This document shows positions 6,036 to 51,471 of a DNA stretch of 64,000 bases, piece by piece. Both the position numbers and the translations under genes were made by a program. How positions within the stretch are numbered: the first letter of the stretch is position 1; each line of letters opens with the position of its first letter. The DNA is from a virus. The stretch is from IMG/VR virus record IMGVR_UViG_3300025784_000008, one strand, 5' to 3'. Under the pieces are notes generated by a model. It had not been told where the DNA came from and did not search any database. It was given only the letters and a program-made list of their open reading frames with translations.

Positions 6036-6051
6036 ACGGCCTAAGCAGATG
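6036..6051 (+). promoter_or_regulatory. conserved ACGGCCTAAG motif upstream of gene 6083
   Basis: ACGGCCTAAGCAGATG directly follows the terminator T-run, 32 nt before the GTG. Confidence 0.4.
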
Positions 6052-6082
6052 TAGCCTTTTCTATTAGAAATGGAGGTTGTTC

Positions 6083-6544
6083 GTGTCTAACAAGAAAGAA
6101 GCCCCCGCCCCGGAGGGGGAACCGAAAGCCAAGCTTCCCCCCGATGTCGAGCAGTTCATCAACGACGAGATCAGCTATCTGCGGAAGATGGGCCTGGCCG
6201 GCGATCTTGAGGTCATGGCGGAGAGGGCGATGGAGCGCCTGAACCGCAAACATGAAGAGCTCAGGGACCTCGAATCCGAGCTCGACATCGTTGAGTACGA
6301 CATCAAGCAGAAGGACAAGGTCATTGACGAGTGGTGCAAGCCCCACCGCAAGATCCTGAGCCGGCTGCTGGTACTGGTCTTCAAGATCCGCAAGCCCTTC
6401 GACAAGTACTACGACGAGTTCGAAGAGCTGAAGAAAAAGAAGACCATCCTGGAGGCTCGTCGGGGAGCCCTTCTCGATGAGATTGATTCCGAAACCGATC
6501 TGGCCAAACGCGCAGCTGCGTGCCGCCGGGCAATGACCAGGTAG
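6083..6544 (+). CDS. coiled-coil protein
   Basis: GTG start at 6083, six nt after GGAGG. Charged heptad-like sequence. Confidence 0.55.
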   Translation: MSNKKEAPAPEGEPKAKLPPDVEQFINDEISYLRKMGLAGDLEVMAERAMERLNRKHEELRDLESELDIVEYDIKQKDKVIDEWCKPHRKILSRLLVLVFKIRKPFDKYYDEFEELKKKKTILEARRGALLDEIDSETDLAKRAAACRRAMTR

Positions 6545-6554
6545 GAGAACAATC

Positions 6555-7370
6555 ATGGGTCGTTTGACTGTCCACGTTCCTTTCAACGTGGGAGACCTTG
6601 TATTTGCTGCTGGTGTTGATGAACACCAGTACACCTGTGAGTGCGCGATGTGCAGCGGGTACGGCACCCTCAAAATACCGGAGGGCACGAAAGTCATAGG
6701 GGCCGAGGAAGAGGAAGGAGACTGGCTCGCAGACGACGAGGCAGAGTGCCCTGCTTGCGAAGGCTACGGCTCAGATGACGAGGAGGTTGAGATCCTGTTC
6801 CCGTGCCTGGTTGGCCGAATCTCGCGCATCACAGCTGACGTAACCGCGGATCTCGACGAAGAGAGTCCCGACGAGTACGAAGAGGTAATGGTAGGCATCC
6901 GTCACCTTGCCGTCGCTAACCTTGACGGAGAGTCCGAGATGTCGATGACCGAACAGATGATTCGGTTCTACCACGCACTCAAGGCCGGCGAGATCATGGA
7001 CTTCAACACCGTGGTCAAAGGATCACCCACCACGGTGAGGGTGGACCGCATTCACAAGACCTACAAGCAGCTGTGTGAATACGTCTTGAAGGAGAACCTG
7101 GAAACCTTCAAGAAGATCCACGAGGATCTGACCAACCAGGAATACGAGATTCCGACCGTGGACCGGATGGGCGCCATCCACGTCTGCAACGAAATCGTGG
7201 CCATCCAGGACATGATCCTGGGCATCTACCCGGAGCTCGCAAAGCTCACCCCCGGCTACAAGGCCAAAGGCAAGAAGACCAACAAGAAGACCGAAGGGAA
7301 GACGGAGAAGAAGCCGAACGAGGCCCTCATGGCTCTGTCTTCTGTAGAGGTCGAGGAGGCACTGTTTTGA
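6555..7370 (+). CDS. zinc-finger protein, CxxCxGxG paralog 1
   Basis: CAMCSGYG and CPACEGYG motifs. Acidic C-terminal half. Confidence 0.6.
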   Translation: MGRLTVHVPFNVGDLVFAAGVDEHQYTCECAMCSGYGTLKIPEGTKVIGAEEEEGDWLADDEAECPACEGYGSDDEEVEILFPCLVGRISRITADVTADLDEESPDEYEEVMVGIRHLAVANLDGESEMSMTEQMIRFYHALKAGEIMDFNTVVKGSPTTVRVDRIHKTYKQLCEYVLKENLETFKKIHEDLTNQEYEIPTVDRMGAIHVCNEIVAIQDMILGIYPELAKLTPGYKAKGKKTNKKTEGKTEKKPNEALMALSSVEVEEALF

Positions 7371-7948
7371 ACATCCAAGACGTCAAGCCAGGCGATCGGG
7401 TCTGGCTGATTCGAAAAGGCCTGTCAGTTGGGATCAAGCTGGTATGTCCTGATTGTCGTGGTGTAGGGTTCGCGGGAGACATCATGATCCCCTGCAACAC
7501 CTGCGATGGCTATGAGTACATCCGCAAAGAGGTTCCCACCTTCGAGGTCGTTGGCGCTGTGAAGGTGCGCTCGGTGACGCACACCGGTGAACATGACGAC
7601 CCGGTCGTCGAGATTCTGAGGCCGCCGCTCTTCCTGTTGGATGCCTACGGGAACAACGTGATCGAGATGTGCAAGGATTACTGGGACGACTTCGAGAAGG
7701 GCAGGTCCCACGCAGGAGCCTACCCGCAGACAATCCGAGACCTCAGCCATCTGACGCTCACCTACGAAGAGGCCATCGAGCGTGCCAACGAGCTGACCAA
7801 CTACCACATTCAGGACGCCTGTGACCAGGAGAAGACCGTACTCTATGACCGCCCGGAAGATGTATTCAGGCAGACGGCCGTTGGTCAGGCCCAGGCAGAC
7901 ACGGTTGAGATCTTCAAGGAAACAGCGATCGAAGAAGCCCTTTGTTAG
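7367..7948 (+). CDS. zinc-finger protein, CxxCxGxG paralog 2
   Basis: CPDCRGVG and CNTCDGYE motifs. Its start overlaps the stop of the preceding gene. Confidence 0.6.
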   Translation: MNIQDVKPGDRVWLIRKGLSVGIKLVCPDCRGVGFAGDIMIPCNTCDGYEYIRKEVPTFEVVGAVKVRSVTHTGEHDDPVVEILRPPLFLLDAYGNNVIEMCKDYWDDFEKGRSHAGAYPQTIRDLSHLTLTYEEAIERANELTNYHIQDACDQEKTVLYDRPEDVFRQTAVGQAQADTVEIFKETAIEEALC

Positions 7949-7958
7949 GAGAAAGGTG

Positions 7959-8699
7959 ATGTCAATACGTGGAAGGCGGAGAAACTCCGACCATCAGAGA
8001 TACACCTCGTACTTCATGAAGCAGCACGTTCACATGATCGCTCCTCGGACAAAGAGCGTGTCGATCGACTGCAACACCTGTCACGGCACGGGCACGGATG
8101 GGTACTTCCAGCCGTGCTCCGAGTGTGACGGTGACGGCAAGAAGACCTACAACCTCACCCTGTACGAGTATGTCGGTGACGTGGAGATCGCCGGCTGCTC
8201 GGTCACCGCGGGAGGGAAGACCTACAGCGTTCGCTACTTCGATCTGTTCCACATTCCAGAGATGGTTCGAGCAGAGGAGTCGAAGCGGCGTTGGGATGCC
8301 ATTGATGTAGGCCGCCGGCCTATGTCCGACGCCAACTGGTCCAGCAACATACCTGAGGACTGTCTGTTCTCATCCATCGGTCTCGCAATGGACGTCGCTT
8401 ACGAGAACAACCTGGACATCCTCCAGGGTTTCACCAAGACGCAGGCGTTGGCCATACTCAAGTTGTTCGACGAGCATGAATCGTCAACCGCTACTCCATC
8501 GGTTGACTCTTCTGGCGCCTTGGTTCCGAAGGAGCTGCTGAGTGATCCTCCGGAGACGGTGGAGATGACGCTGGGTGAATACCCGATGCTCACGTTTGAA
8601 ACCTACTCACAGTCGATGCAAGGCAATGACCGCATCGTTACCGAGTCTGACTTCCGCAAGCGGCACGCTGACGTGAAGATCGAGACCGCTTTGACCTGA
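7959..8699 (+). CDS. zinc-finger protein, CxxCxGxG paralog 3
   Basis: ATG at 7959 after AGGAGAAAGG. CNTCHGTG and CSECDGDG motifs. Confidence 0.6.
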   Translation: MSIRGRRRNSDHQRYTSYFMKQHVHMIAPRTKSVSIDCNTCHGTGTDGYFQPCSECDGDGKKTYNLTLYEYVGDVEIAGCSVTAGGKTYSVRYFDLFHIPEMVRAEESKRRWDAIDVGRRPMSDANWSSNIPEDCLFSSIGLAMDVAYENNLDILQGFTKTQALAILKLFDEHESSTATPSVDSSGALVPKELLSDPPETVEMTLGEYPMLTFETYSQSMQGNDRIVTESDFRKRHADVKIETALT

Positions 8700-8708
8700 G
8701 GAGAGAAC

Positions 8709-9785
8709 ATGGGATTCAAAATTGACAGCATGGTGTGCATCCATCTCCCTCGGTGGAAACAGATCGCATTCTTCTGCGGTCAGTGTGCCGGTACCGGGTT
8801 CTCCGGTACAGGAACTTGTTTCAAGTGTAACGGCTCTGGTATTCGCACAGAGAGGTTGCAGTACCTGGTCTTTGGCGGCGTGGCCAAGATTACAGGCTTG
8901 TTCTCCATCCAGGGACAGACCACGTACACCATCGTCTATCCGTTCCTGCAGGGACTTCTCGACCACTCCAAGCAGGACACTCAGCAGATCATGGATGTAT
9001 CGTCCGCGTTCTGGGAGAAGAATAAGGACTCTCAACAGAAGAGCCCGCCTGGAACGGTCACGATGCAGATTCCGGAAAGTCAGGTGTTCCACACCTACAA
9101 CGAGGCCATCCAGAACCTCACCAAGTGCAACAAAGAGGTAATCGACGAAGGCATCCGCCGGCACGGTGGCGTTCCCGGTATCTTTGAGGAGAACCCGGAG
9201 AAGATCAAGCCGAACACGACATCCCGAACCGGCGGTACGCCGTACAGCGGTAAGCCGTATGGAGAGCCGCGGGTCAATGACTTGTTGTGGGCAGTCGAGT
9301 ACCACGGCAATGTCCAGAAGTTCTTCCGGTGTCCGCAGTGCAAAGGCGAGGCCAAGAAGGCCAACGTCAAGTGCTCCAGGTGCCACGACTCAGGGCACAT
9401 TGCGATGCACATCCCGCAGTACATCCTGAGGGGGCAGGTACGTGTTATCGGAACTATGTCCGGTGACTACCTCGACCTTGAGGCAGCTCCGATTCCCTAC
9501 GTGGATGACGACACCCACGCCCTGATCACCAAGAACTACTGGGTCAATCACGCCGAGGGCACGGACAACCGCATCCCCAAGAACACGATTGCCACCTGGG
9601 AACATCTGTTCTACACGGTGGACGGGGCCAAAGAGTGGCTCGCCAAGAAGAACGAGACCATGCTCAGGCAGTGGTGCGAGGATCACCACGACATCCTCCC
9701 TGTGGGGATGGACGGCGAGGTTCTTGAAGGGTTCAAGCCCAAGGTCGGCCCCAAGCCCGTACCCATCGAAGCCTGCCTCTGCTAG
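8709..9785 (+). CDS. zinc-finger protein, CxxCxGxG paralog 4 (two finger pairs)
   Basis: CGQCAGTG, CFKCNGSG, CPQCKGEA and CSRCHDSG motifs. Confidence 0.6.
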   Translation: MGFKIDSMVCIHLPRWKQIAFFCGQCAGTGFSGTGTCFKCNGSGIRTERLQYLVFGGVAKITGLFSIQGQTTYTIVYPFLQGLLDHSKQDTQQIMDVSSAFWEKNKDSQQKSPPGTVTMQIPESQVFHTYNEAIQNLTKCNKEVIDEGIRRHGGVPGIFEENPEKIKPNTTSRTGGTPYSGKPYGEPRVNDLLWAVEYHGNVQKFFRCPQCKGEAKKANVKCSRCHDSGHIAMHIPQYILRGQVRVIGTMSGDYLDLEAAPIPYVDDDTHALITKNYWVNHAEGTDNRIPKNTIATWEHLFYTVDGAKEWLAKKNETMLRQWCEDHHDILPVGMDGEVLEGFKPKVGPKPVPIEACLC

Positions 9786-9793
9786 GAGGGACA

Positions 9794-10099
9794 ATGTGTT
9801 ACTACCCGCCGAGGTTCCTGGAAGGGACCAGGGTTCGCGTTATCAGGCACGGCAGCGATCCAAAGTACGCCAGGGAAGGCGTCGTCGTACAGATGTTCGG
9901 CGGCGCCACCTGTGGCGTGTTTGACGTAATCTTTGACGGCGACGACTACCGCTCTACGTGTTCGGAGTGGGACCGTGTGGAGAGGATCTATGAAAACGAA
10001 GAGAGGAAAGCCCCTCCCGAAAAAGAAGTACCCGAAGAATCTGAAGTGGATCTACGAAGTTTGCTACAGGATGCGTGGAGACGTCGAGGCGGAGCATAA
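9794..10099 (+). CDS. hypothetical protein (the 3' part overlaps the next ORF in another frame)
   Basis: ATG after AGGAGGGACA. The N-terminal 70 aa look genuine. Confidence 0.4.
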   Translation: MCYYPPRFLEGTRVRVIRHGSDPKYAREGVVVQMFGGATCGVFDVIFDGDDYRSTCSEWDRVERIYENEERKAPPEKEVPEESEVDLRSLLQDAWRRRGGA

Positions 10100-10256
10100 G
10101 ATCACCGAGATCATGAACTGCCAGTCAATCGAAGAGGTCAAGACGGCGTTCTACTCGACTCCACGCTTCAAGGGCATGACGTTGGCCAGCTGCCGCCGGC
10201 TGCGGAGGATGGTCCCCGAAGATCTTGAGAAACTTGAGGCCCCGGCAAGGCTGTGA
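9990..10256 (+). CDS. hypothetical basic protein
   Basis: ATG at 9990 after GGAGAGGA. Lys-rich N-terminus. Confidence 0.4.
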   Translation: MKTKRGKPLPKKKYPKNLKWIYEVCYRMRGDVEAEHKITEIMNCQSIEEVKTAFYSTPRFKGMTLASCRRLRRMVPEDLEKLEAPARL

Positions 10257-10278
10257 TGGCTGCAGAGTCTGCGGCCAC
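10257..10278. repeat. dyad element, copy 2: TGGCTGCAGAGTCTGCGGCCAC
   Basis: Lies immediately after the stop codon of gene 9990-10256. Confidence 0.7.
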
Positions 10279-10312
10279 GAGAGAAGGGTGGTCGCTCAAC
10301 CCTTCTCTTTTA
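10279..10312 (+). terminator. rho-independent terminator at the convergent block boundary
   Basis: GAGAGAAGGGT...ACCCTTCTC stem followed by TTTT. Confidence 0.55.
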
Positions 10313-10549
10313 GTACGTGAATTCACCCCGCTGCCGAGAACCCACCCAGGCGTCCCGAGCGTTACTCGCGTCCAAGGTCAGGTGGTACTCGTAACCGTCG
10401 TAATAGAACAGATCATGGTTCCGAAGAGCATAGACTCCAGTTTGAAGGTCCAGGAACGTGTCCACCTTCGGAAACGAATGCCCGAGCGCCTGCTCTCTGA
10501 GTATGTTCTGTACATAGTCTTCGAGCTGTTTTGACCAGTAGCATTTCAT
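10310..10549 (-). CDS. hypothetical protein
   Basis: 79-aa ORF. Confidence 0.45.
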   Translation of the reverse strand: MKCYWSKQLEDYVQNILREQALGHSFPKVDTFLDLQTGVYALRNHDLFYYDGYEYHLTLDASNARDAWVGSRQRGEFTY

Positions 10550-10851
10550 GTTCCCACCTTCTGGTTGGTCGGCTTATCGTTCTCATCCAGCCAGACGAAC
10601 TCCCCGTTTTCTCCTACAGGGAAATAATTTCCACAGGAAGCGCAGAACGTCGACCCGTAAAATTCAGGATTCAGTGCATAGGTCTCGGCAATCCTGACCC
10701 CCATTTTGGTGGTGCCACCGCACTTGAGATGTTGATACGCCGTCCGGATCGGACGCACGAACTTCTTACCAGAAGGATCGACGGTAGGGTGGCTCTCGTA
10801 CTGACCGTCGGGTCCCTTCTTACCGTAATCGAAAGGTTTGTCGTCAGACAT
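10546..10851 (-). CDS. small Cys-containing hypothetical protein
   Basis: Internal ATG at 10851 preceded by GGAG. Contains a CGG..C-x2-C pattern. Confidence 0.45.
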   Translation of the reverse strand: MSDDKPFDYGKKGPDGQYESHPTVDPSGKKFVRPIRTAYQHLKCGGTTKMGVRIAETYALNPEFYGSTFCASCGNYFPVGENGEFVWLDENDKPTNQKVGT

Positions 10852-11140
10852 TGGTACTACTCCTGTCCTGAAGCCACTGCTCTGTTTTGAGCTGAATAAG
10901 ACGAAGCGCCCACATCGGATCCTTCCAGATGTCTTTGTACAACCACTGCCGCATCTTGGGAAAGTAGCGCTTGAGATCGTCACGAGCACCGTCGTATTGA
11001 GCCGCATACACCTTTGCATGATGAACGACGGTTTTCTGGTGAACCAAGGGTAGCCGTTCGAATCTCTTCTGTATGCGGTCCAGCCCCGAGGAGAACAGAT
11101 CCAACGGAAATACCGACCTGAATTCTTCCCAGGGAGTCAT
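10844..11140 (-). CDS. hypothetical protein
   Basis: 98-aa ORF. Confidence 0.5.
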   Translation of the reverse strand: MTPWEEFRSVFPLDLFSSGLDRIQKRFERLPLVHQKTVVHHAKVYAAQYDGARDDLKRYFPKMRQWLYKDIWKDPMWALRLIQLKTEQWLQDRSSTNV

Positions 11141-11670
11141 GCTGTGTTTCCTTTTCTGATGTCGGTTTTAGGGGCTCTACCAGGAATGAGCTTGAGGATA
11201 GGATCCCCGGTCTCGTCAAGGGGGACAGACCTGTTCTGCTTGCGCTGGCGTCCAAGCTTGATACCGGTCAGGTAGCGTTCGCTGAGCTCCGATCCCTTCA
11301 TAAGGTGCTTGAGCTCGTCCATGGACTCAGGCTCAAACAGCAGGAAAAGGTTGGCCTTCTGGCCGGTGGACGCCCCGGTACGATTCACACGCCGAATCAG
11401 CCCCAGCTTCTCAAGTTCGGCAGACCATTCCCTCACCGTGCTCATACTTCGTCCGCACAGCTTTGCCAAGGTTCTCACAGAGGGGTGGCGATGCTCGCCT
11501 TTGAACCCGCCGTAGCTGGCGATCACCGTGTACAGGAACTTCCACTCCAAAGGTATAGGCAGGATGATCAGCCACTTCGGCATCGTCGAGTAGGGCGTGG
11601 AGGGAAGATCTACTGATTGCATAAGAAAAGCTCCCGGAGCAGGCGTCGTTCTTTGGCGAAGAAGACACAT
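11137..11670 (-). CDS. winged-helix/HTH DNA-binding protein (candidate replication or regulatory protein)
   Basis: PSVRTLAKLCGRSMSTVREWSAELEKLGLIRRV helix-turn-helix. It borders the 630-bp repeat-rich non-coding region. Confidence 0.45.
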   Translation of the reverse strand: MCLLRQRTTPAPGAFLMQSVDLPSTPYSTMPKWLIILPIPLEWKFLYTVIASYGGFKGEHRHPSVRTLAKLCGRSMSTVREWSAELEKLGLIRRVNRTGASTGQKANLFLLFEPESMDELKHLMKGSELSERYLTGIKLGRQRKQNRSVPLDETGDPILKLIPGRAPKTDIRKGNTA

Positions 11671-11784
11671 ACACGGGAGCTTTAGCCGTTTGGGCCATAC
11701 TCATAGTACGTGTCTTCTTCGCCGAGAACAACCCTACTCCGGCGAGAATTTTATGTCAAGAACGTATGGAGAAAAGCGTGCATC

Positions 11785-11926
11785 CCCCACCGGTGTATCG
11801 GCGGGGGACCCCCACCGGTGTACGCTACCCCTATAAGTAATACTAACTGCTAACCATCCCCCTACAGGGGATGGAAGTAACTGTACCAGTTACTTCCATC
11901 CCGCTCCCCCAGCGGCTGCGCCGCTG
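11785..11926. promoter_or_regulatory. cluster of direct repeats and perfect hairpins in a 630-bp non-coding region (candidate origin or regulatory region)
   Basis: CCCCCACCGGTGTA appears twice, and each copy contains the CACCGGTG palindrome. CCATCCCC-CTACA-GGGGATGG forms a hairpin. GGATGGAAGTAACTG-TAC-CAGTTACTTCCATCC is a 15-bp perfect stem. CAGCGG-CTGCG-CCGCTG forms a further hairpin. Confidence 0.4.
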
Positions 11927-12302
11927 TGGTCGTCGGACGAGCTAAAAAGAAAAGGGTACTTTTACTTGATCGCCTTAGCGGCGTAGGGTATACCACACCC
12001 GACGTACAGACCTCTGCCGATCTGTGCTTCATGTACTACCTTCCTTGTTTGAGTAAGACGGTCGAACTAACCTTCGGCCGTTTTGCTTTCAATGGGCCTA
12101 CAACCCATCTGGCGTTCGATATGAGCAGCCTGAATGGCCGAAAGGTCTTCGGATACCCTAAGGTACCCGCCGAACGATCCTGGAGGCGTTTTATCGTAAA
12201 AAACAGGGGGTGGTTATGCTGGACCAAGGCCCACCCCCTGATTAGACGGTTTACCTGCGCCGCTCATTCGAGCCCACAGTCTCGGGCAGTCACGCAGGGC
12301 CG

Positions 12303-12725
12303 TCAGTCCCTGTCACTTGAAGACATCTGGTCGATTACGGTTTCGGCGCCCTCCGGAATGTTGTCGTTCGGCACCTCGACGTACTGGCCGTCTCGTACCT
12401 CGTACGTACTGTCGCCCTCCGCCTTATCCGGGTTTACTAACCTGATTGCCGGGCCGAGCCAGCCAAAGATGCACTCCCCGTCGTCGGCCCTGAACCACAT
12501 GACATCTCCGATGTCATCACCGCTTCTCCTGATTTTCTGGAGAAGAGTCACGGCTTCTTTTGAGATGCCGAGATGATTCTTGGTGTCTCGTACCAGGCAG
12601 CCGATCTTCGACCCACCGTTGGGGATGAAGAACTTCGTCCCACTCCAGTACTCTTCTGGCGTGTCGATCACCAGTATCCCCTTGTACGAAAGCACTCTGA
12701 TAAGCGGTTTGGTATCTTCCGTCAT
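12303..12725 (-). CDS. hypothetical protein
   Basis: 140-aa ORF. GGAGATTTAC precedes the ATG. Confidence 0.55.
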   Translation of the reverse strand: MTEDTKPLIRVLSYKGILVIDTPEEYWSGTKFFIPNGGSKIGCLVRDTKNHLGISKEAVTLLQKIRRSGDDIGDVMWFRADDGECIFGWLGPAIRLVNPDKAEGDSTYEVRDGQYVEVPNDNIPEGAETVIDQMSSSDRD

Positions 12726-12746: not shown

Positions 12747-12764
12747 CACCTTCTTAGGCCGTAT
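12747..12764 (-). promoter_or_regulatory. conserved ACGGCCTAAGAAGGTG motif upstream of gene 12303-12725
   Basis: The reverse complement reads ATACGGCCTAAGAAGGTG, 22 nt before AAGGAGA and the ATG. Confidence 0.4.
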
Positions 12765-12785
12765 GTGGCTGCAGACTCTGCAGCC
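12764..12785. repeat. dyad element, copy 3: TGGCTGCAGACTCTGCAGCCAC (perfect 10-N-10 palindrome)
   Basis: Sits between the terminator and the promoter motif. Confidence 0.7.
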
Positions 12786-12796
12786 ACGGCGGGACT

Positions 12797-14024: not shown

Positions 14025-14191
14025 GCCGGCTCCTTTACAGAAAGATGAGAGGGGTGTGCGCGGGGCGGATACATTGACGGCTCTCATTCATTTGAGCCAC
14101 CTCCGAGAAAGCCCCTTCGTCCGTGTGTTCCGCCGCGCTACTACGATAGGCGCCTATCTTATGTTCACGCTGCCGAGCACACCCCTTACTG

Positions 14192-15498: not shown

Positions 15499-15792
15499 CT
15501 AACCGTTGGCGTCAGGCAACTCGGGAGCCTTCATGTTCTCTGAGATCGAGTTGATGGTGGTCGAAACCAGGAGGGCAATGAAGCTGATGGGCCAGGTGAC
15601 GGTGCCGATGAGACCGACGACGATGCCGGCAACCCACCCCAGCCGGTTGTCCTGGAAGGTGTTGTAGGCCCTGCGGAAGGCCGGCACGCCGAAGCGGGCA
15701 CCGATCAGGATGTAGATGCCGCATCCGATGACGAACAGGATTGTGGTAAGCATGTCATTTCTCCTTTTCTGAGGAACCAAGTTTCCTCTCAC
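15499..15792 (-). CDS. small membrane protein (two transmembrane helices)
   Basis: 97-aa hydrophobic ORF. AAAGGAGAAATGAC precedes the ATG. Confidence 0.5.
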   Translation of the reverse strand: MRGNLVPQKRRNDMLTTILFVIGCGIYILIGARFGVPAFRRAYNTFQDNRLGWVAGIVVGLIGTVTWPISFIALLVSTTINSISENMKAPELPDANG

Positions 15793-15802
15793 TTTCTTAG
15801 GC

Positions 15803-15838
15803 CGTAAAAAAGAAGCCCCCTATGCGGGGGCCCCTTTC
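15803..15838 (-). terminator. rho-independent terminator
   Basis: GCCCCCGCATAGGGGGC stem with a T-run, read on the minus strand. Confidence 0.6.
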
Positions 15839-16320
15839 TGTGGCTGCAGAGTCTGCGGCCATCGTTCCGGTCTTATGGTAAGGCCCACGTTATTCAGCCA
15901 GGTTTTGACCGTGATGTTGGACCCATCATGGTCGACGACCGCGAGGCCGGGGCTCACGATGCCCAGCTCCACGGTGCGGAGAACCGCCTCCTGCAGGGAC
16001 TTGCTCGGAGGTGAATAACACCAACCGGAGTCGTATCCACTTAGACCATTGGCCCACCGGTAATAGACCTGAGACCTCCCCTCGCTGTCACAATACCAGA
16101 GGTCGCGACCCCCCTGCATGTACTCGCGGCATTGGTAGTGACCGAGAAACTTACAGCAGACGCACCCTTTGAAGTGTTCAAACCGAGGTTTTCCCAGGAT
16201 CACCTTTGGAGTAACCCCCATTACTTCTGCAAAGAGTTCAATCTCCCGGAGGCGTGCCTCGTAAAGACCGCCGGGAGTCATTAGCTTCAGCAGTTCTTCT
16301 CTGTCCATTCTTTCCCCCAT
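15820..16320 (-). CDS. Cys-rich hypothetical protein
   Basis: CVCCKFLGHYQC and related Cys-rich stretches. Confidence 0.5.
   Translation of the reverse strand: MGERMDREELLKLMTPGGLYEARLREIELFAEVMGVTPKVILGKPRFEHFKGCVCCKFLGHYQCREYMQGGRDLWYCDSEGRSQVYYRWANGLSGYDSGWCYSPPSKSLQEAVLRTVELGIVSPGLAVVDHDGSNITVKTWLNNVGLTIRPERWPQTLQPQKGAPA
15841..15862. repeat. dyad element, copy 4: TGGCTGCAGAGTCTGCGGCCAT
   Basis: Overlaps the last codons of gene 15820-16320. Confidence 0.7.
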
Positions 16321-16829: not shown

Positions 16830-17054
16830 TTAGTAAGTGTGGCCGGGATACTTTACCCATGCCCCATCCTTCTTCGTCCTCAGGAGGGTTCGCTTTATGC
16901 CGAACTTTCGTTTCTGCGTGAGGTACCACGATGCGGCCTGAAGCTCGTTGTCGAAGTACAGGGTGCCGGTAGGATCCTCCACTTTGTGGGTCGAAGATGA
17001 TGACTCCTGTTTGGTGATCATTCGAAAACCTCCTTTCACCTTCTTAGGCCGCAT
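16830..17054 (-). CDS. hypothetical protein
   Basis: 74-aa ORF. Confidence 0.4.
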   Translation of the reverse strand: MRPKKVKGGFRMITKQESSSSTHKVEDPTGTLYFDNELQAASWYLTQKRKFGIKRTLLRTKKDGAWVKYPGHTY

Positions 17055-17092: not shown

Positions 17093-17482
17093 CTAGAAGA
17101 CCAGCTCGACCATGACCGACCCCATGTCGACCATGGCTTCCTTGGCGTCATCCGGGAAGCCTTCAAGCCTGTTGTAGGCGTAGGCCAGGGATTCCCGCCA
17201 GAGTTCGGCGCTGACGCCGGCGTCGACCTGGTCGACCAGGAAATCGGAGCGGACCGATCCGATGTGCTGGTCGATCGCCTCGGAGCTGTCGAAGCCGTGC
17301 TCGACGAAGTATTCGCAGGCGCGAATGAATCCGGGGCGCTCCATGATCTTGATGACCTTGTCGTGGACGTCCTCACGGCCCACGGTTTTGAAGACCTCTA
17401 CGTTCCTGCGGAACTGATCGATGACCCGTTTGACCTTGGAATCCATGACCTTCTCCTTTGAAAGAAGTAATTTCCCTCTCAC
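17093..17482 (-). CDS. hypothetical protein
   Basis: 129-aa ORF. Confidence 0.5.
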   Translation of the reverse strand: MRGKLLLSKEKVMDSKVKRVIDQFRRNVEVFKTVGREDVHDKVIKIMERPGFIRACEYFVEHGFDSSEAIDQHIGSVRSDFLVDQVDAGVSAELWRESLAYAYNRLEGFPDDAKEAMVDMGSVMVELVF

Positions 17483-17506
17483 CTTCTTAGGCCATGGAAC
17501 TTATGG

Positions 17507-18133: not shown

Positions 18134-18229
18134 CTCTTCTCCTTTTCAAAAGGGTTTCGGTACACCTTCTTAGGCCATCTCAACCAACAGCTCTTGATAA
18201 AGACTTTGGACCAAGACGAACTAAAAAAC

Positions 18230-22158: not shown

Positions 22159-22204
22159 AAAAACCTCCTTTCCTTGTTTCCTTAGACCGTAAAAAGAAGA
22201 GCCA

Positions 22205-23146: not shown

Positions 23147-23390
23147 GTAAGTCTTTCTCTACTTCCTTAGCTCGTAAAAAGGAGCCCCTGGGGGAGCTCC
23201 TTATAGCTGATAAGATATTCCATCGGACCTAACAACCCATACTTGTTTGATTGGAATAGGTGGACCCGAAGGAAAGCTCGAAGTCAGATTAACTGGCCGG
23301 AAACTGATTCCATAGCCAAGAGCCGCTTTGACAACAAGCATGTTACGTTTACGCTTTTGAAACCTGCAAAGACGAATTTCTCCTGGGGTT

Positions 23391-24487: not shown

Positions 24488-24521
24488 GACGTTCTCCTTT
24501 GGGGTATTGAATTTCTCCTAT

Positions 24522-24535
24522 CCTCTTAGACCGTA
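24522..24535 (-). promoter_or_regulatory. ACGGTCTAAGAGG motif upstream of gene 23897-24487
   Basis: Directly follows the terminator T-run on the minus strand. Confidence 0.35.
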
Positions 24536-26852: not shown

Positions 26853-26871
26853 ATCGTCTCCTTAGGCCGGA

Positions 26872-29647: not shown

Positions 29648-29692
29648 GAACGTCCTCCTTGAACGATCCGATGAAGTACTTCTTCCGCCTAC

Positions 29693-29708
29693 TCTCTTAG
29701 GCCCTATA
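29693..29708 (-). promoter_or_regulatory. GGGCCTAAGAGAG motif upstream of gene 29516-29647
   Basis: Variant of the ACGGCCTAAG family. Confidence 0.35.
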
Positions 29709-31580: not shown

Positions 31581-31589
31581 GGATCTGAA

Positions 31590-32381: not shown

Positions 32382-32384
32382 GTA

Positions 32385-32968: not shown

Positions 32969-32983
32969 GACTAACCTCCTTTC

Positions 32984-33427
32984 TTAGAACCGTAGCTCCG
33001 TCATGTGGGGGTACTTCCACCAGTCGCCTGTCCCCAAGCCCATGTCCTTGACCCAGAGAACCACAGGCGTTGCTAACATATGGTTCAACGATGGTTCAAG
33101 GTCTGGGTGAACACTTGTAATTTTCCCCCGAAGCTCATCATCGGGACAGGTTCGAATCCGGCGCAGAAGTTGTGCCGGCCATGTGTTCAGGAAGTACAGG
33201 CCGCCAGCGTAGTTGGTGGAAACAAGGTTGAATTCGGACCGGCTGCGTTTGAGGTCAGAGATGGTCTCTTCGATAAAGTTCTGGAGCTTCTGGGGAAGAC
33301 CAAAGTAGGGCTTGAACTGTATCGGGTGAGCACCAATTTCTCTCAGCCAGTCGGTGTTGATCAGGTAGTGGAATTTCTCGGGGATTTGCTTCATCGCTGC
33401 TGCAAATCCTGTGTCGTCCGAATCCAT
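32984..33427 (-). CDS. hypothetical protein
   Basis: 147-aa ORF. AAAGGAGGCAGTAATG start context. Confidence 0.5.
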   Translation of the reverse strand: MDSDDTGFAAAMKQIPEKFHYLINTDWLREIGAHPIQFKPYFGLPQKLQNFIEETISDLKRSRSEFNLVSTNYAGGLYFLNTWPAQLLRRIRTCPDDELRGKITSVHPDLEPSLNHMLATPVVLWVKDMGLGTGDWWKYPHMTELRF

Positions 33428-33446: not shown

Positions 33447-33464
33447 TACCTTCTTAGGCCGTAT
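33447..33464 (-). promoter_or_regulatory. ACGGCCTAAGAAGGTA motif upstream of gene 32984-33427
   Basis: Follows the tandem terminators. Confidence 0.4.
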
Positions 33465-37198: not shown

Positions 37199-37266
37199 GG
37201 TTATTCCTTTTGAACTAAGAGAAAAGGCCCGAAGGCCTAAATTCTCTCCATCTGCTTAGACCACAC

Positions 37267-37288
37267 ATGGCTGCAGAGTCTGCAACCA
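37267..37288. repeat. dyad element, copy 7: TGGCTGCAGAGTCTGCAACCAC
   Basis: Lies just after the stop of the AAA+ gene. Confidence 0.65.
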
Positions 37289-37292
37289 CGGG

Positions 37293-43740: not shown

Positions 43741-43756
43741 CATCGTCTTAGGCCCT
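43741..43756 (-). promoter_or_regulatory. GGGCCTAAGACGATG motif upstream of gene 43158-43706
   Basis: Follows the terminator on the minus strand. Confidence 0.35.
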
Positions 43757-43783: not shown

Positions 43784-43788
43784 CTGTG

Positions 43789-43810
43789 GCTGCAGACTCT
43801 GCGGCCACTA
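43789..43810. repeat. dyad element, copy 8: TGGCTGCAGACTCTGCGGCCAC
   Basis: Overlaps the stop of gene 43808-44221. Confidence 0.7.
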
Positions 43811-45702: not shown

Positions 45703-46458
45703 CTACTCCAATCGAGCCTTGGCTTCAAGCTTCTCGTCGCCGTCTGAAAGGCTCCCGCTCTTGATCCCCGCGGAAGATAGGGTGTCGATCCCGATGTACC
45801 GGTACTTGTCCTCTTCGTTAGGCTCGGTGAAAGTCTTTTCCAGCTCCCCAGAACCAACCATCGTGTCAAGTACGAAGGCTATGAAGCCGTTTTCAGGATC
45901 AGACCACTCACCCCTCATCTTGTTCTTGCCATCTGACGGATCCTTGAAGAAGATCCCGTTCTTTCGGTAACGGGCACAGATCGCCCTAACTTCATCGCGT
46001 TTGACTTTGCCTTTCAAAGCCTCAGCGATTTTGTTTGAGTTAGTGCTTTGAACTCGGGCCATGGCTACGAGCAAAACAGCGGCAGCATTCCACCCTGGAG
46101 TTCCGGGTTCAAAATCCGAAGCCATAACTTCCAGGAGTCCATCCAAGGTACCCAGCTTCGTTTCTACCTCGACGGACTTGATGAAGTTTTCCAGCGCAAG
46201 CCGGATGAGGCTTTTATATGCAGCCAAACTGGAAGGCTTCAGAGGGTTTTTACGAATCGTATTGCACCGCTGAACCAGGTCGTCAAGGTCGATAGTTCGG
46301 ACATCCGCGGCCTCTTCAATTGTCATGACAGCAAGTGATTTTTTGACCGCATTCAATCGATTACGCCATCGCTCCATGTCGGAATAGTACTTCTGCGCCT
46401 TGACCATCTCCTCGCAGTTATCCAGTAGACGGGCAACGCTGAAATCAAATTTCTTCAT
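45703..46458 (-). CDS. hypothetical protein
   Basis: 251-aa ORF. Confidence 0.5.
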   Translation of the reverse strand: MKKFDFSVARLLDNCEEMVKAQKYYSDMERWRNRLNAVKKSLAVMTIEEAADVRTIDLDDLVQRCNTIRKNPLKPSSLAAYKSLIRLALENFIKSVEVETKLGTLDGLLEVMASDFEPGTPGWNAAAVLLVAMARVQSTNSNKIAEALKGKVKRDEVRAICARYRKNGIFFKDPSDGKNKMRGEWSDPENGFIAFVLDTMVGSGELEKTFTEPNEEDKYRYIGIDTLSSAGIKSGSLSDGDEKLEAKARLE

Positions 46459-46477
46459 GACGTAAACCCTTTCTTAC

Positions 46478-46492
46478 TACCTTAGGCCAGCT
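46478..46492 (-). promoter_or_regulatory. TGGCCTAAGGTAG motif upstream of gene 45703-46458
   Basis: Variant of the ACGGCCTAAG family. Confidence 0.35.
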
Positions 46493-46505
46493 AAGCTAAA
46501 AGAAA

Positions 46506-46527
46506 TGGCCGCAGAGTCTGCAGCCAT
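46506..46527. repeat. dyad element, copy 9: TGGCCGCAGAGTCTGCAGCCAT
   Basis: Lies just after the stop of gene 46534-46983. Confidence 0.7.
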
Positions 46528-49552: not shown

Positions 49553-49768
49553 TTAGATGAATTCTTTGGACGGATCGATCCCCAGCTCCTCAAGACGCTT
49601 GAGGAGCCTCTCAGCGGACAACCCGGTAAACATGCTCGAATCCTCGCTGATGACGGAGTATATGTCCAGGTCCCCGTTCTTGTGGACATCCAGGAACCAT
49701 CCTAGTGCGTGGTCTTTGCCCCACAGCACGTGCCGCCCATCAGCGAGCTTCTCATGATGCTGGCTCAT
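49553..49768 (-). CDS. hypothetical protein
   Basis: ATG at 49768 after GGAGGAG. Confidence 0.4.
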   Translation of the reverse strand: MSQHHEKLADGRHVLWGKDHALGWFLDVHKNGDLDIYSVISEDSSMFTGLSAERLLKRLEELGIDPSKEFI

Positions 49769-49770
49769 CA

Positions 49771-50271
49771 CTACTCCTCCGGTTCGGGTAAGCCAACACT
49801 GGCGTCCCACCGATTCGTGTGCTTCAGAAACTTGACAGCCAGAGCGTACATGGCTGCAGCCTGCGGTCCCTGGAACGGAGTGCTCATCGGCAGCCCATGT
49901 ACGGAGTTACGGTGCTTCAACGCACACACCGGACATGACGCGTACGTCCCTTCTGTAGACACCGACTGGGCGATTAGTGCCAACGGGAAGTCGATCTTAC
50001 AGATCTTACACTTTTCCAGGTCCTCTGGAGCAAGCGTGTCGAACTGTTCTTCCAGCCCCGGAAAGTTGTGTTCAAAATACAGGTAGGTCCCGTCTTCTTG
50101 TTGAATGCGGACCTTGCCCAGGTATTCCAGTTCTTCGTCAGCCTCCGAATCGAAAGGAATCCCTATCTCGGAGAGCTCATGAAGCGGGATCCAGATGAAC
50201 ACATCCTCGTGGCCCTTGGGAGCCGCGTACATCAGCTCGATGTTCTTGGCCTTCGTATATTTTTCAGCCAC
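49771..50271 (-). CDS. Cys-containing acidic protein
   Basis: CKICK...CPVC motif. Confidence 0.5.
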   Translation of the reverse strand: MAEKYTKAKNIELMYAAPKGHEDVFIWIPLHELSEIGIPFDSEADEELEYLGKVRIQQEDGTYLYFEHNFPGLEEQFDTLAPEDLEKCKICKIDFPLALIAQSVSTEGTYASCPVCALKHRNSVHGLPMSTPFQGPQAAAMYALAVKFLKHTNRWDASVGLPEPEE

Positions 50272-50340
50272 TCACCCCCCTTTCATGTAAATAAAGAAGA
50301 GGGGCTTTCGCCCCCGCTTCTTCTCGGCAACGCAGGACCT

Positions 50341-50808
50341 TTAGGTGGTCTGGGGTGTAGACCGGGCCCTGCTCTGGTATTCCCCAGCGCCTGTCCCCTC
50401 TTTCGGAAGGACGTTCATGGTGACCTCCTTCTGCTTAGGCGCCAGCAGCCTCTCTGCGAGGCCGCTAATGAGTGTGTTGAACCGAACAACCTTGAACTTC
50501 TCCCTGATCGCCAACTTGATCAGGTAGACGGCGTCCGCCGCCAGGTCTTTGTCCCGTTCGAGGTTCTCGTACAGGACCATGGCGTCCGCCGACTTGAGAA
50601 TCGGTGGAAGAACCTCTTCAACGAACAGTTCCAGGAACTCTGGATCTGATCGGTTGCAATCGTGAAGCCACTTCAGCCAGCAGCTGAAGTTTTCGAAGTC
50701 CTCGTCGTCGAGGACTCCTGATTCCTTGACGATCCTGAGGACCGTCATCGCGCCAACGGATAACCCCTTATCCGTTAACGACTTACCAGTGCCGAGTATA
50801 CCTTGCAT
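50341..50808 (-). CDS. hypothetical protein
   Basis: 155-aa ORF. A GGCCTAAGGAGGTG motif lies upstream. Confidence 0.5.
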   Translation of the reverse strand: MQGILGTGKSLTDKGLSVGAMTVLRIVKESGVLDDEDFENFSCWLKWLHDCNRSDPEFLELFVEEVLPPILKSADAMVLYENLERDKDLAADAVYLIKLAIREKFKVVRFNTLISGLAERLLAPKQKEVTMNVLPKEGTGAGEYQSRARSTPQTT

Positions 50809-50856
50809 TGCTTCACCCCTTTCCGGTGAAAGGCCTATAGATTCCCTTTCACCTCC

Positions 50857-51471
50857 TTAGGCCGGATCGATCGGGGTTTTTGGGTCACCGCCTCCCATCA
50901 GTTGCAGGTTACCGTGAATTTTCATCCAGACGGGAAAGCGCATCTCCCAAAGTTTGAGGGCGAAGACTTCCCTGGCGCGGTACCGGTCAGACATCTTGTC
51001 GGTCAGCCGCGACGACCTCCAAGGCGGACAGATCCGTTTCTTTTCTGACAGCTTCGGTTCAGCCCTGGAGTTCCTGACCGCCCATGCCAAGGCGTTCTCG
51101 GTGCCTCGGATCATGTGAAGCAGGTTGGCCATTTTGGCTACTACCCAGTACAGATGAATCGCCTTCTCGATGCTTTCGCGGAGTTCACCCTGTATGGGTA
51201 TCCCGCCGTTCAGGATACTCTGGAGTACCGTCTTACGGTGAACCACCTTGGCGGAGAGCTTGGCGAGGCCAACCGCACAGCGTGCACGATCTGAGGCGGA
51301 ACAGCCGTGGTCTCCGATGGCCAACAAAAGGCTAAGTCCCTGCGCCTCGGCAAAGCCGGCGCGGCGGTACTCAACCTCAGGAGCGATATTCATCACCGGC
51401 AACGAGATGTTGACGTGGTCCAGGAAATCGTCGAACGGGATCCATGGTTTATCTACGGTCATCGCTGACAT
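50857..51471 (-). CDS. hypothetical protein
   Basis: ATG at 51471 after AGAAAGGA. The longer ORF predicted in the track overlaps a divergent gene. Confidence 0.5.
   Translation of the reverse strand: MSAMTVDKPWIPFDDFLDHVNISLPVMNIAPEVEYRRAGFAEAQGLSLLLAIGDHGCSASDRARCAVGLAKLSAKVVHRKTVLQSILNGGIPIQGELRESIEKAIHLYWVVAKMANLLHMIRGTENALAWAVRNSRAEPKLSEKKRICPPWRSSRLTDKMSDRYRAREVFALKLWEMRFPVWMKIHGNLQLMGGGDPKTPIDPA

Follow-up and report, generated by a model that had tools for sequence, protein, structure and literature searches.

The window analyzed here, a 64,000-nucleotide stretch of the ~195-kb genome of an uncultured phage (IMG/VR record IMGVR_UViG_3300025784_000008), contains a short repeated motif that is most likely a promoter used by transcription proteins of the phage itself, namely a fused, bacterial-type RNA polymerase (RNAP) and a sigma factor; for the whole reading, that is, a compact GGCCTAAG-N3-R-T-R core promoter recognized by the phage sigma most likely with the phage RNAP, we estimate a probability of roughly 0.6. 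An earlier note on this DNA had suggested a phage-specific promoter served by a phage RNAP or a sigma-like factor whose gene would lie outside the window; this suggestion is supported by the presence of both genes in the genome, conservation of orthologous sites, motif copies at block heads, class specificity, and an analogous motif in Salmonella phage Arash. The support is computational only, without transcript 5' ends or biochemistry; the promoter identity, the start site, the sigma and core enzyme that read the motif, and the timing are inferred.

The motif occurs before ~20 small genes in the phage's small-gene block (window ~3–52 kb), mostly on the minus strand. All 15 positions in the earlier note were confirmed (6036 on the plus strand, the rest on the minus strand), and a few more were added; the sites are as follows.

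6038..6051, plus strand: GGCCTAAGCAGATG, directly 3' of a terminator T-run; 45 nt to gene 6083-6544; PWM score 24.5 bits.
12747..12760, minus strand: GGCCTAAGAAGGTG, palindrome 4 nt upstream with a terminator beyond; 35 nt to the ATG of gene 12303-12725; 27.7 bits.
15790..15803, minus strand: GGCCTAAGAAAGTG, terminator directly 5'; 50 nt to the ATG of gene 15499-15753; 26.5 bits.
17037..17050, minus strand: GGCCTAAGAAGGTG, terminator 13 nt upstream; Shine-Dalgarno sequence (SD) from position 15 and ATG at position 30, gene 16830-17021; 27.9 bits.
17480..17493, minus strand: GGCCTAAGAAGGTG, without an upstream terminator; 47 nt to the ATG of gene 17093-17446.
18163..18176, minus strand: GGCCTAAGAAGGTG, ending a 651-nt non-coding gap; 43 nt to the TTG start of gene 17507-18133.
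22175..22188, minus strand: variant GGTCTAAGGAAACA, terminator directly 5'; 30 nt to the ATG of gene 21799-22158; 18.9 bits.
23160..23173, minus strand: variant GAGCTAAGGAAGTA with GAGCTAAG at 23166-23173, absent from the earlier note; terminator directly 5'; 27 nt to the ATG of ORF 22799-23146; 14.1 bits.
24519..24532, minus strand: variant GGTCTAAGAGGATA, in the order palindrome, terminator, motif; 45 nt to the ATG of gene 23897-24487.
26855..26868, minus strand: GGCCTAAGGAGACG, 3 nt past the upstream stop codon; ATG at position 17, gene 26580-26852; 20.4 bits.
29690..29703, minus strand: GGCCTAAGAGAGTA, palindrome 4 nt upstream; 56 nt to a small ORF starting at 29647; a divergent junction where the minus-strand block resumes after an inverted plus-strand cassette.
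32977..32990, minus strand: GTTCTAAGAAAGGA, a doubtful degenerate copy merging with the SD of gene 32552-32968.
33447..33460, minus strand: GGCCTAAGAAGGTA, two terminators 5'; 33 nt to the ATG of gene 32984-33427; top PWM score, 28.5 bits.
37249..37262, minus strand: variant GGTCTAAGCAGATG, in the order palindrome, motif, terminator-like hairpin, SD; orthologous site in L021, L022 and L043.
43741..43754, minus strand: GGCCTAAGACGATG, terminator directly 5'; orthologous site kept in L043, where hairpin, leader and palindrome have diverged.
46475..46488, minus strand: GGCCTAAGGTAGTA, upstream palindrome plus T-run serving as terminator; 30 nt to the ATG of gene 45703-46458; orthologous site kept in L043.
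50850..50863, minus strand: GGCCTAAGGAGGTG, without an upstream terminator; 55-nt leader with conserved hairpins, then gene 50341-50808; orthologous site in L043.
51830..51843, minus strand: core GGCCTAAG, heading the entire minus-strand block, with a long leader to gene 50857-51471; ATTTTG follows the core (no RTR), and L043 keeps the core with the full consensus ACGGTG.

The core GGCCTAAG is found 14 times exactly in the window (1.37 expected; none of 100 shuffles gave at least 14) and, across 94 kb of the phage, is one of the three most over-represented 8-mer families. The 16-mer ACGGCCTAAGRAGGTG, with at most 3 mismatches, occurs 11 times in the window (0.93 expected), and the extended consensus GGYCTAAGNNNRTR (GGYCTAAG-N3-RTR) 15 times (0.13 expected); the form GGTCTAAG is the variant carried at 22177, 24522 and 37249. 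The conserved block is T-R-N-GGCCTAAG-R-A-N-R-T-R, ~17 nt, with nothing conserved further upstream.

The sites are intergenic and share the orientation of the next gene, whose start codon has its own SD. For 12 of the 18 GGYCTAAG copies, a start codon in the same orientation follows within 70 nt (2.8% for random placement; binomial p ~4e-15). This count is based on crude gene calls and rises to 15 of 18 once the small ORFs at 29647, 37198 and 50808 are included. The distance from the first G of the motif to the start codon is 16–63 nt and not the 8–45 nt previously given; this variable spacing and the separate SDs refute the reading of the motif as an extended ribosome-binding site (RBS) only. 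The 3' half of the window version, UAAGAAGGUG, does resemble a perfect SD (UAAGGAGGUG), and the merger of motif and SD that had been described holds at 26858, where the core overlaps the SD (TAAGGAG); the doubtful copy at 32981 that merges with an SD is probably just the RBS region. Likewise, the placement of the motif directly after a terminator T-run applies to only ~10 of the 18 sites; the remainder come after a conserved palindrome or after a stop codon. The "AC" that precedes the core partly reflects how the phage's own terminators generally end (TTTCTTTTTA[C/G]). Strong intrinsic terminators are plentiful in the region with motif sites, and sigma-70-like sites are rarer there than by chance (3 vs 9.0 and 4 vs 6.5 expected).

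Orthologous sites in two diverged lineages keep the core but not the flanks; L043 has five such sites, and L021 and L022 retain the one at 37249..37262. Lineage L018, the one with an ATPase of 61% identity, has 9 co-oriented copies (0.33 expected), in which the SD-like 3' half is not conserved (AnnRTAGAg). Copies at the heads of blocks, without an upstream co-directional gene, are found at 29703 and 51843 in the window and at 1177 in L018. No good motif sites were found in the ~72 kb surveyed of the replication, sigma, packaging and RNAP modules of the same phage, and distant relatives without the motif have canonical promoters instead.

The search of the rest of the genome for an RNAP or sigma-factor gene, which the earlier note had called for, identified both outside the window. 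The sigma-70-family factor (Pfam regions 2 and 4; SigK/SigE/RpoS-like) was linked to the window by a contig fingerprint that its cluster member P0132 shares with window protein P0001 in the same sample (7 contigs, longest 195,499); a sigma gene also shares its 194,114-bp contig with L018. The sigma homologs have an invariant region 2 and a variable region 4.2, which matches an invariant core and no -35 element. The RNAP is a fused beta-beta' chain of 2,031 aa with the catalytic motif NADFDGD, Rpb2_6 (4.9e-55) and Rpb1 domains 1/2/3/5; its alignment with the bacterial subunits covers beta' 148-517 and beta 475-1157, the beta' segment including, in E. coli, the sigma-binding clamp helices. Its gene adjoins those of the portal and terminase, and both sigma and RNAP genes are present in 3/3 motif-bearing lineages.

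Salmonella phage Arash, a cultured distant relative, is reported to have beta, beta' and sigma but to lack a single-subunit RNAP; its virions contain RNAP beta, beta' and sigma by proteomics, and its promoters are not mentioned (PMC10585845). We found in Arash a motif, GGTATAAG-N4-RTGTAA, at ~20 co-oriented sites in a block of small genes (8 vs 0.67 and 8 vs 0.04 expected), one copy being 20 nt upstream of a tRNA-Asn gene. Both phages have the form GG-NN-TAAG and, behind it, a nearly identical stretch (AAGGTGTA or AAGATGTA), and they share a homologous portal-then-RNAP gene order; however, the two central bases are TA in Arash and CC in the window phage, and in Arash one extra base separates the core from the T-R step. 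The RNAP of Arash is divided between polypeptides (beta plus beta'N, and beta'C) and shares only 30% identity with the window-phage enzyme, and the sigmas are barely alignable (21% identity, pairwise E = 0.02); also, RNAP and sigma were demonstrated in Arash virions, whereas there are no virion data for the window phage.

The same promoter could instead be read by host RNAP core carrying the phage sigma, as in sigma appropriation by SPO1 gp28 and T4 gp55, with the fused RNAP serving another gene class or needing a different specificity factor. We regard this as possible but rather unlikely: phage sigmas are generally said to redirect host core (PMC7598289, PMC7824862), and the sigma gene ends the replication module, away from the RNAP gene, and encodes a protein that resembles cellular sigmas; against this stand the co-occurrence of sigma and RNAP in every motif lineage, the alignment of the RNAP across the beta' segment with the clamp helices, and the presence of both proteins in Arash virions.

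That unmodified host holoenzyme, with a housekeeping or alternative sigma, uses the motif as an unusual extended -10-type promoter is improbable. The Arash version, TGGTATAAG, is one base off the enterobacterial TGnTATAAT, and the host of the window phage, hence the host promoter consensus, is unknown; but GGCCTAAG lacks the T-12/A-11 found in all sigma-70-type -10 elements, its invariant G-G and final G exceed sigma-70 requirements, Arash has textbook TTGACA-17-CATACT promoters beside its motif, and the motif tracks the phage sigma/RNAP lineages.

That the motif works at the RNA level within the 5' leader, whether as a site of endoribonuclease processing, as a stabilizer, or as a ribosome stand-by site or enhancer, is quite improbable. 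Its AAGGTG half does look like an SD, motif and SD merge at 26868, and a leader TAGGCC could pair with GGCCTA at several sites (37262, 43754, 50863 and 51843 in the window). But where the motif abuts terminator T-runs no space is left for another promoter, the SD-like half is lost in L018, no conserved RNA structure was found at the motif sites, and the distance to SD and ATG varies. The block-head sites and the Arash tRNA copy also disfavor the leader or processing site that had been offered as an alternative, without excluding it.

Returning to a promoter read by the phage sigma and RNAP, we propose that GGCCTAAG-N3-R-T-R would be the core promoter of ~20 short transcription units in the small-gene block, one compact DNA element that works without a -35 partner. 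The 8-mer would lie at about -14 to -7, aligned with Arash GGTATAAG and the bacterial extended -10 (TG-n-TATAAT); this alignment is by analogy only because the core has C-C at -12/-11 where sigma-70-type promoters have T-A. The first transcribed base would be the conserved purine that follows the conserved T, 6–7 nt downstream of the core. The predicted reader is the phage sigma, whose -10-recognition helix is altered and invariant across lineages, most likely partnered by the phage's own RNAP; each unit would end at a strong intrinsic terminator, the next promoter starting 0–2 nt past the T-run. The polymerase may enter with the virion and transcribe the small-gene class early, a possibility based on the Arash precedent and the position of the RNAP gene beside portal and terminase genes.

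Several observations count against this proposal. No -35 element is seen, although the sigma has a recognizable region 4.2, and the sigmas of the window phage and Arash are barely similar. At four sites (26868 and 32990 in the window; 5005 and 19954 in L018) the SD is 9–17 nt from the first G, and initiation at position 14–15 would truncate it; at 37262, a terminator-like hairpin lies within ~25 nt downstream of the motif. With ~60 kb of the ~195-kb genome outside our survey, a further polymerase or specificity factor cannot be excluded.

Known systems share parts of this architecture. Extended -10 or "-10-only" sigma-dependent promoters include TGnTATAAT, the T4 late TATAAATA (gp55) and the phiEco32 gp36 promoters. 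Like the proposed window promoter, these are single compact elements ~7 nt upstream of the start, with a dedicated phage sigma and no need of a -35; however, the window motif is G+C-rich without T-A at -12/-11, gp55 lacks region 4.2 whereas the window-phage sigma keeps it, and the core enzyme may be phage-encoded, not the host's. The phiKZ/AR9-type phages are similar in their multisubunit phage RNAP, short promoter near the start, many early units and possible virion delivery. Their RNAPs are split into 4–5 highly diverged polypeptides, have no sigma homolog (gp68 or gp226 takes that role), and use A+T-rich or uracil-containing template-strand motifs (PMC7598289, PMC5449584, PMC4666361). In contrast, the window phage has a single-chain RNAP of clearly bacterial type (Pfam E = 5e-55), accompanied by a sigma-70-family protein.

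T7-group promoters are contiguous conserved blocks of ~23 nt with an AT-rich -17 region. The window block is also contiguous, would include the start region with a purine-rich initially transcribed sequence, and is repeated before many genes, often just after terminators or processing sites; it is shorter (~17 vs 23 nt) and lacks the AT-rich -17 region. We leave only a very slim chance that it is the promoter of a single-subunit (T7-/N4-like) RNAP encoded in an unexamined part of the genome. Its compactness, the 3' half that resembles T3 and SP6 promoters (CTAAAGGGAGA, TATAGAAGAG), and some SDs that start right after the core, compatible with a start inside the motif, would fit; but no T7-like catalytic motifs were found in ORFs of at least 150 aa (window, L012, L044, L045 and L002; for L047 and L048 only the large ORFs were covered, by Pfam), no single-subunit RNAP was found in the window-phage loci screened, a multisubunit RNAP and sigma are present instead, and Arash, with its analogous motif, is reported without such an enzyme (PMC10585845).

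Full-consensus copies also lie inside ORFs.

3217..3230, plus strand: GGCCTAAGGATGTG, inside ORF 2301-3350 (codons W-P-K-D-V), 143 nt to the next gene, 23.1 bits; possibly an internal promoter or a coding coincidence.
16034..16047, minus strand: GGTCTAAGTGGATA, inside ORF 15820-16320; a possible but uncertain internal site.

The window contains 14 copies of the 8-mer core of the motif, GGCCTAAG, where 1.37 would be expected; none of 100 shuffles reaches 14. The 16-mer first proposed for it, allowing up to three mismatches, occurs 11 times against 0.93 expected, and the extended consensus derived in this analysis, GGYCTAAG-N3-R-T-R, occurs 15 times against 0.13 expected. Every copy reported in the earlier note was found again in the window, those at 22177, 24522, and 37249 as GGTCTAAG variants, and four sites can be added.

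Motif sites added in this analysis (window positions)
23166-23173: GAGCTAAG, directly behind a terminator
51836-51843: heads the minus-strand block
3217, plus strand: full-consensus copy within an ORF
16047, minus strand: full-consensus copy within an ORF

An unbiased analysis of the 8-mers in 94 kb of the phage places the core among the top three signal families, that is, with a 23-bp palindrome and the terminator tail; the other over-represented 8-mers (AATGCCTC, TAGGTCTT, and GAGTACAT) were discarded as codon effects within genes. Exact matches to the 16-mer in IMG/VR (L006-L010) were likewise discarded as coding coincidences (G-R-P-K-K-V). The information-content profile of 26 sites from two phages defines a conserved block of ~17 nt, T-R-N-GGCCTAAG-R-A-N-R-T-R; upstream of this block the same profile has no conservation and no -35-like partner. 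The 'AC' that precedes the core is in part the standard terminator tail of the phage, TTTCTTTTTA(C/G).

Twelve of the 18 core copies have a co-oriented start codon no more than 70 nt downstream, compared with a random expectation of 2.8% (p ~4e-15); this figure rests on a crude gene map, and it becomes 15/18 when three small ORFs overlooked by the caller are included. A terminator directly upstream, described as the usual situation, is present within 0-25 nt at ~10 of the 18 sites; the remainder are preceded by a stop codon or by a conserved palindrome. Start codons follow the first G of the motif at 16-63 nt, not at 8-45 nt as first estimated, and nearly every motif-fronted gene has its own AAAGGAGG-type Shine-Dalgarno sequence (SD) nearer the ATG; therefore, the motif is not a ribosome-binding site. 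The purine-rich 3' half of the motif, AAGGTG, is SD-like. The earlier note had allowed that the motif might be only an extended RBS; this reading fails on the spacing, on the separate SDs, and on the homologous motif in the Salmonella phage Arash (vide infra), which precedes a tRNA gene.

The motif is common to three diverged lineages. In L018, a locus on a separate 194-kb contig that encodes an ATPase 61% identical to that of the window, nine copies occur where 0.33 would be expected, each of them on the strand of the genes and most of them behind terminators; their consensus is GGCCTAAG-A-n-n-R-T-A-G-A. In L043, a locus syntenic with the window from 53 to 35 kb at 70-78% nucleotide identity, orthologs of five sites are kept; in one pair (window 43754 and L043 8215), TTTTA-S-GGCCTAAG-M-CGATG is kept and the terminator hairpin, leader, and palindrome are all changed. 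The third lineage, L021 (86%) and L022 (78%), keeps the site downstream of the ATPase gene. The motif is missing in more remote relatives, with ATPases of 50%, 39%, and 37% identity, whose promoters are of the textbook TTGACA/TATAAT or TGTATAAT type. Within the motif-bearing lineages, the loci for replication, sigma, packaging, and RNAP are free of the motif, and a PWM scan of those 72 kb returned only low-scoring matches to lysine codons.

The remaining choice is between a promoter and an element that acts in the RNA, for example, a conserved 5' leader or a processing site. The motif abuts the T-runs of terminators, with no space for another promoter; it heads transcription blocks that have no gene of the same direction before them (window 29703 and 51843; also L018 1177, where the divergent gap is 71 nt); and the SD-like half of the window motif is not kept in L018. 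These three observations favor a promoter rather than an RNA element, and we assign a probability of roughly 0.85 to the promoter reading, for which we have no transcript data.

No sigma or RNAP domain is present among the 98 window proteins; a search outside the window, as had been proposed, located genes for both. The phage is represented by contigs of 81, 130, 154, and up to 195.5 kb from anaerobic-digester-type metagenomes. A search with the palindrome identified a 76-kb IMG/VR contig that shares no sequence with the window and proved to be another part of essentially the same phage. By protein look-up the window's phage itself is not represented in IMG/VR, but its other half effectively is, by way of this contig, which is at least 90% related. 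A sigma-70-family protein of 257 aa, in which Pfam recognizes regions 2 and 4, is encoded there (L002 393-1166; L031 10001-10774) at the end of a replication module in the order ThiF, DnaB, primase, PolA, helicases, RecA, and sigma. P0132, a member of the same 90%-identity cluster as this sigma, is found on 7 contigs of up to 195,499 bp, figures identical to those for the window ATPase (P0001), and also in the sample of the window's contig (ERZ27257465). A sigma-70-like TTGGAC-18-TATACT sequence that precedes the sigma gene was set aside as probably coding; its substitutions between lineages are consistent with third-codon-position variation.

In a further stretch of that contig, a GpA-type terminase is clustered with a protein that contains an intein. 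Beside the portal and terminase genes, a 2,031-aa ORF (L047 2301-8396, the same as L048 12301-18396) encodes a fused beta-beta' RNA polymerase, with Pfam matches to Rpb2 domains 6 (E = 4.9e-55) and 3 and to Rpb1 domains 1, 2, 3, and 5, and with NADFDGD at residue 1384. It aligns to residues 148-517 of bacterial beta' (E ~1e-73 to 1e-88) and 475-1157 of beta; in the E. coli enzyme the beta' span includes the clamp helices that bind sigma, and a helix-turn-helix stretch matching them is visible in the phage protein. P0256, a member of the RNAP cluster, shows the same figures as P0132 and P0001 (7 contigs, longest 195,499 bp). Fused homologs of ~2,000 aa are common on metagenomic contigs of 100-195 kb (139 proteins at E <= 1e-30), and inteins lengthen some of them to 2,400-2,900 aa. 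Many of the homologs (P0136, P0142, P0143, and others) contain inteins; the IMG/VR copy has none, and the at least 90%-identical P0136 (2,431 aa) has one. Hint and LAGLIDADG inteins interrupt a 985-aa protein near the terminase gene (L045 11533-14490, minus strand). A 1,177-aa ORF upstream of the window was considered as a polymerase and rejected (no Pfam, PHROG, or PDB match and no catalytic motifs); it looks like a structural protein.

Both genes accompany the motif in each lineage: the sigma homolog P0129 and the RNAP homolog P0138 are encoded by the 194,114-bp contig of L018, and the sigma homolog P0124 is found in the samples of L043, with contig statistics equal to those of the RNAP homolog P0137. 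A cognate sigma, with regions 1.2, 2, and 4.2, is thus available in all three. Six sigma homologs (down to 47% identity) share an unchanged region 2, the -10-recognition helix included (KLITYAAWHIED; SigA has TYATWWIRQAITR), and differ between lineages in region 4.2; this is consistent with an invariant core and no conserved -35 element.

A sigma-70-family promoter of the extended -10 or '-10-only' type would be a compact element without a -35, ~7 nt upstream of the transcription start; the motif is compact, without a -35 element and with a conserved T-R step 5-6 nt past the core, and its distance to the start is inferred by alignment only. The motif does not fit a canonical sigma-70 promoter (TTGACA-N17-TATAAT, 16-18 bp spacing): no conserved element is present upstream of the core, and consensus scans of 10-50 kb recover fewer -35/-10 pairs than shuffles do (3 vs 9.0 and 4 vs 6.5). 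A sigma-54 promoter (GG-N10-GC) was rejected by eye, there being no GC at the required spacing. A T7-like promoter would be conserved over ~20 contiguous bp (-17 to +6); in the motif ~17 nt are conserved, with the register to the start undetermined, and no single-subunit RNAP gene was identified by catalytic motif or Pfam in the loci screened, within ~136 of ~195 kb. The promoters of phiKZ and AR9 are A+T-rich or uracil-containing template-strand motifs, read by RNAPs of 4-5 diverged polypeptides (PMC7598289, PMC5449584, PMC4666361); the window motif does not satisfy this description, being a G+C-rich, -10-like element in a phage with a sigma-70-family factor, which phiKZ/AR9-type systems lack. 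Their subunits are split and diverged; the RNAP of the window's phage is one chain of 2,031 aa that matches bacterial beta and beta' strongly in Pfam and PDB. According to three reviews of jumbo-phage transcription, a jumbo phage that has its own multisubunit RNAP lacks any sigma homolog, and a phage that encodes a sigma lacks an RNAP (PMC7824862, PMC7598289, PMC13282480).

Arash is the only isolate that we found with both a multisubunit RNAP and a sigma. The closest deposited homologs of the RNAP are no more than 30% identical and include that of Arash, in which gp206 is beta fused to the N-terminal half of beta' and gp216 is the rest. The protein encoded upstream of the 2,031-aa RNAP is homologous to the Arash portal (27% identity, E = 2e-68); therefore, the portal-then-RNAP arrangement is common to both phages. 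The Arash virion contains gp206 (with the top spectral count), gp216, and the RpoS-like sigma gp10; the authors of this proteome suggest a role in early transcription and do not discuss promoters (PMC10585845). Using the same intergenic analysis as for the window, we identified an analogous, undescribed promoter-like motif in Arash (OQ632216), GGTATAAG-N4-R-T-G-T-A-A: GGTATAAG occurs 8 times in 1-50 kb against 0.67 expected and GGTATAAGNNNNRTR 8 times in 50-100 kb against 0.04 expected. All but one of the ~20 copies are co-oriented with the small-gene block; the exception, on the plus strand, is located before gp9 and gp10, the sigma gene, and another copy is followed after 20 nt by a tRNA-Asn gene. 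Arash has canonical TTGACA-17-CATACT promoters as well.

Examples of the Arash motif (loci L055 and L056; record positions)
20676, 32944, 34985, 37874, 46639, 58201, 59096, 61264, 73562, 90616: minus strand
11588: plus strand

The downstream halves of the two motifs nearly coincide (GGTATAAG-T-AAGGTGTAA in Arash, GGCCTAAG-AAGGTGTAG in the window). Similarity between the sigma factors of the two phages is no more than marginal. The Arash core, GGTATAAG, can be aligned with the extended -10 element of bacteria, TG-n-TATAAT; with this alignment the window core has C-C at the T-12/A-11 positions, and its last G would be at -7 and the T-R step at -1/+1, a placement inferred without transcription start data. 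Most window SDs begin at or after position 14-15, in agreement with this start; four sites with an earlier-beginning SD fit it badly.

The proposal that the motif is a phage-specific promoter for an RNAP or sigma encoded outside the window is thus supported by comparative and genomic evidence, without experiment. That phage-encoded machinery reads the promoter is probable; naming the fused RNAP and the phage sigma as that machinery is a tentative step, for which the odds are somewhat short of even. We also consider it possible, with rather more doubt than belief, that GGCCTAAG-N3-RTR and the GGTATAAG element of Arash are promoters of a self-contained, sigma-dependent viral system in which a single-chain, bacterial-type beta-beta' RNAP, perhaps packaged in the virion, works with a sigma-70-family factor of its own and fires ~20 early units. 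If so, this would be a third strategy beside phage multisubunit RNAP and phage sigma, which reviews treat as mutually exclusive, and the two motifs would be the first promoter consensus of a sigma-dependent phage RNAP system. Phage-specific promoters are familiar; the associated apparatus, a fused, minimal, bacterial-type RNAP of ~2,000 aa with a sigma, is apparently uncharacterized. We found no paper describing the promoters of such a system, and nothing relevant on the motif or the palindrome; our literature was incomplete, so an earlier description elsewhere is possible. The 14-17-nt consensus makes the transcription system directly testable and permits genes of uncultured relatives to be assigned to predicted temporal classes; the set could serve as a compact orthogonal polymerase/sigma/promoter combination. 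The system also prompts one to ask how a beta-beta' core can function with neither alpha nor omega.

The 23-bp palindrome, (G/A)TGGCTGCAGA(G/C)TCTGCAGCCA(C/T), is near-perfect and always intergenic (0 expected).

Positions of the palindrome
Window: 5962-5984, 10257-10279, 12765-12787, 15840-15862, 24562-24584
Window: 29708-29730, 37267-37289, 43786-43808, 46505-46527, 51488-51510
Elsewhere in the phage: L031 6025-6047 and 18389-18411; L044 3582 and 8754; L047 2277 and 18955

Unlike GGCCTAAG, it is present in all modules of the genome. It often begins directly after a stop codon and can be located 4-5 nt upstream of the motif, before a terminator, or as the terminator stem itself (46507). A site for a dimeric DNA-binding protein is favored over an RNA hairpin because the differences between the arms are mostly not compensatory (C-A mismatches). 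Only degenerate forms occur in the 194-kb relative. An origin as a host repeat was rejected: 596 Gbp gave 9 single matches, approximately chance by our own estimate, none phage-related and none with GGCCTAAG.

Two leaders in the window have potential RNA structure. At 37198-37262 (minus strand), a terminator-like hairpin, AGGCCTTCGGGCCT, with a T-run follows the motif within ~25 nt and is kept by compensatory changes in relatives (AGACCTTCGGGTCT; orthologs in L021, L022, and L043); TTTAGGCC could pair instead with the motif RNA, giving an attenuator-like arrangement. The 55-nt leader at 50808-50863 (minus strand) has two mutually exclusive pairings, GGTGAAAGG/CCTTTCACC or CCTTTC/GAAAGG, and its TATAGGCC is the complement of GGCCTA in the motif; the near-identity of the leader in the 70-78% relative (L043 2273-2330) suggests, from sequence alone, that it may be regulatory.

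The 194-kb relative has two further features. A Ro60/TROVE-vWA protein gene followed by two YrlA-like Y RNAs (L018 11928-15100) would be a phage-borne Ro60-Y RNA module.

YrlA-like Y RNAs in L018 (both below the Rfam gathering score)
13933-14077: E = 4e-08
14967-15093: E = 2e-11

A GGCCTAAG copy (14096) lies between the two, with at least 650 nt downstream that have no credible ORF and no significant structured RNA (fold z = -1.26). At L050 1505-1512 (minus strand), in the structural/RNAP cluster, a full-consensus ATGCGGCCTAAGAAGATGAG (26.8 bits) is intergenic and antisense to its neighbors, a possible antisense promoter; it is missing at the orthologous place in the window's phage. In L019, a distant relative on a 176-kb contig (ATPase 39% identical), dense arrays of tRNA-like genes between small ORFs were noted by eye only (4032-12600); L019 also has an RF-1-domain protein, a sugar-nucleotide/glycosyltransferase cluster, and canonical sigma-70 promoters.

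A near-identity nucleotide search of deposited phages found no close relative of the window. Its minus-strand genes at ~10-51 kb are mostly small, a minority having dCTP deaminase, NUDIX, HD, metallophosphatase, RNase T, or AAA ATPase domains, and strong intrinsic terminators are numerous in 10-50 kb. Long non-coding gaps in this tightly packed genome (11623-12302, 13737-14191, 18134-18784, and 20710-20955), with several strong hairpins inside, could hide small ORFs that are not annotated or non-coding RNAs of unknown kind. Rfam, run in sensitive mode over the large gaps, found nothing, and they contain no tRNAs; no tRNA genes were found in the window as a whole, which has no Rfam match at the gathering threshold and none at E <= 0.05 over 10-24 kb. 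A three-gene cassette (644, 263, and 57 aa; 29646-32557, plus strand), for which Pfam gave no matches, is inverted within the minus-strand small-gene block; at 29703 the block resumes with the palindrome and GGCCTAAG, the latter overlapping the region where the 644-aa ORF starts.
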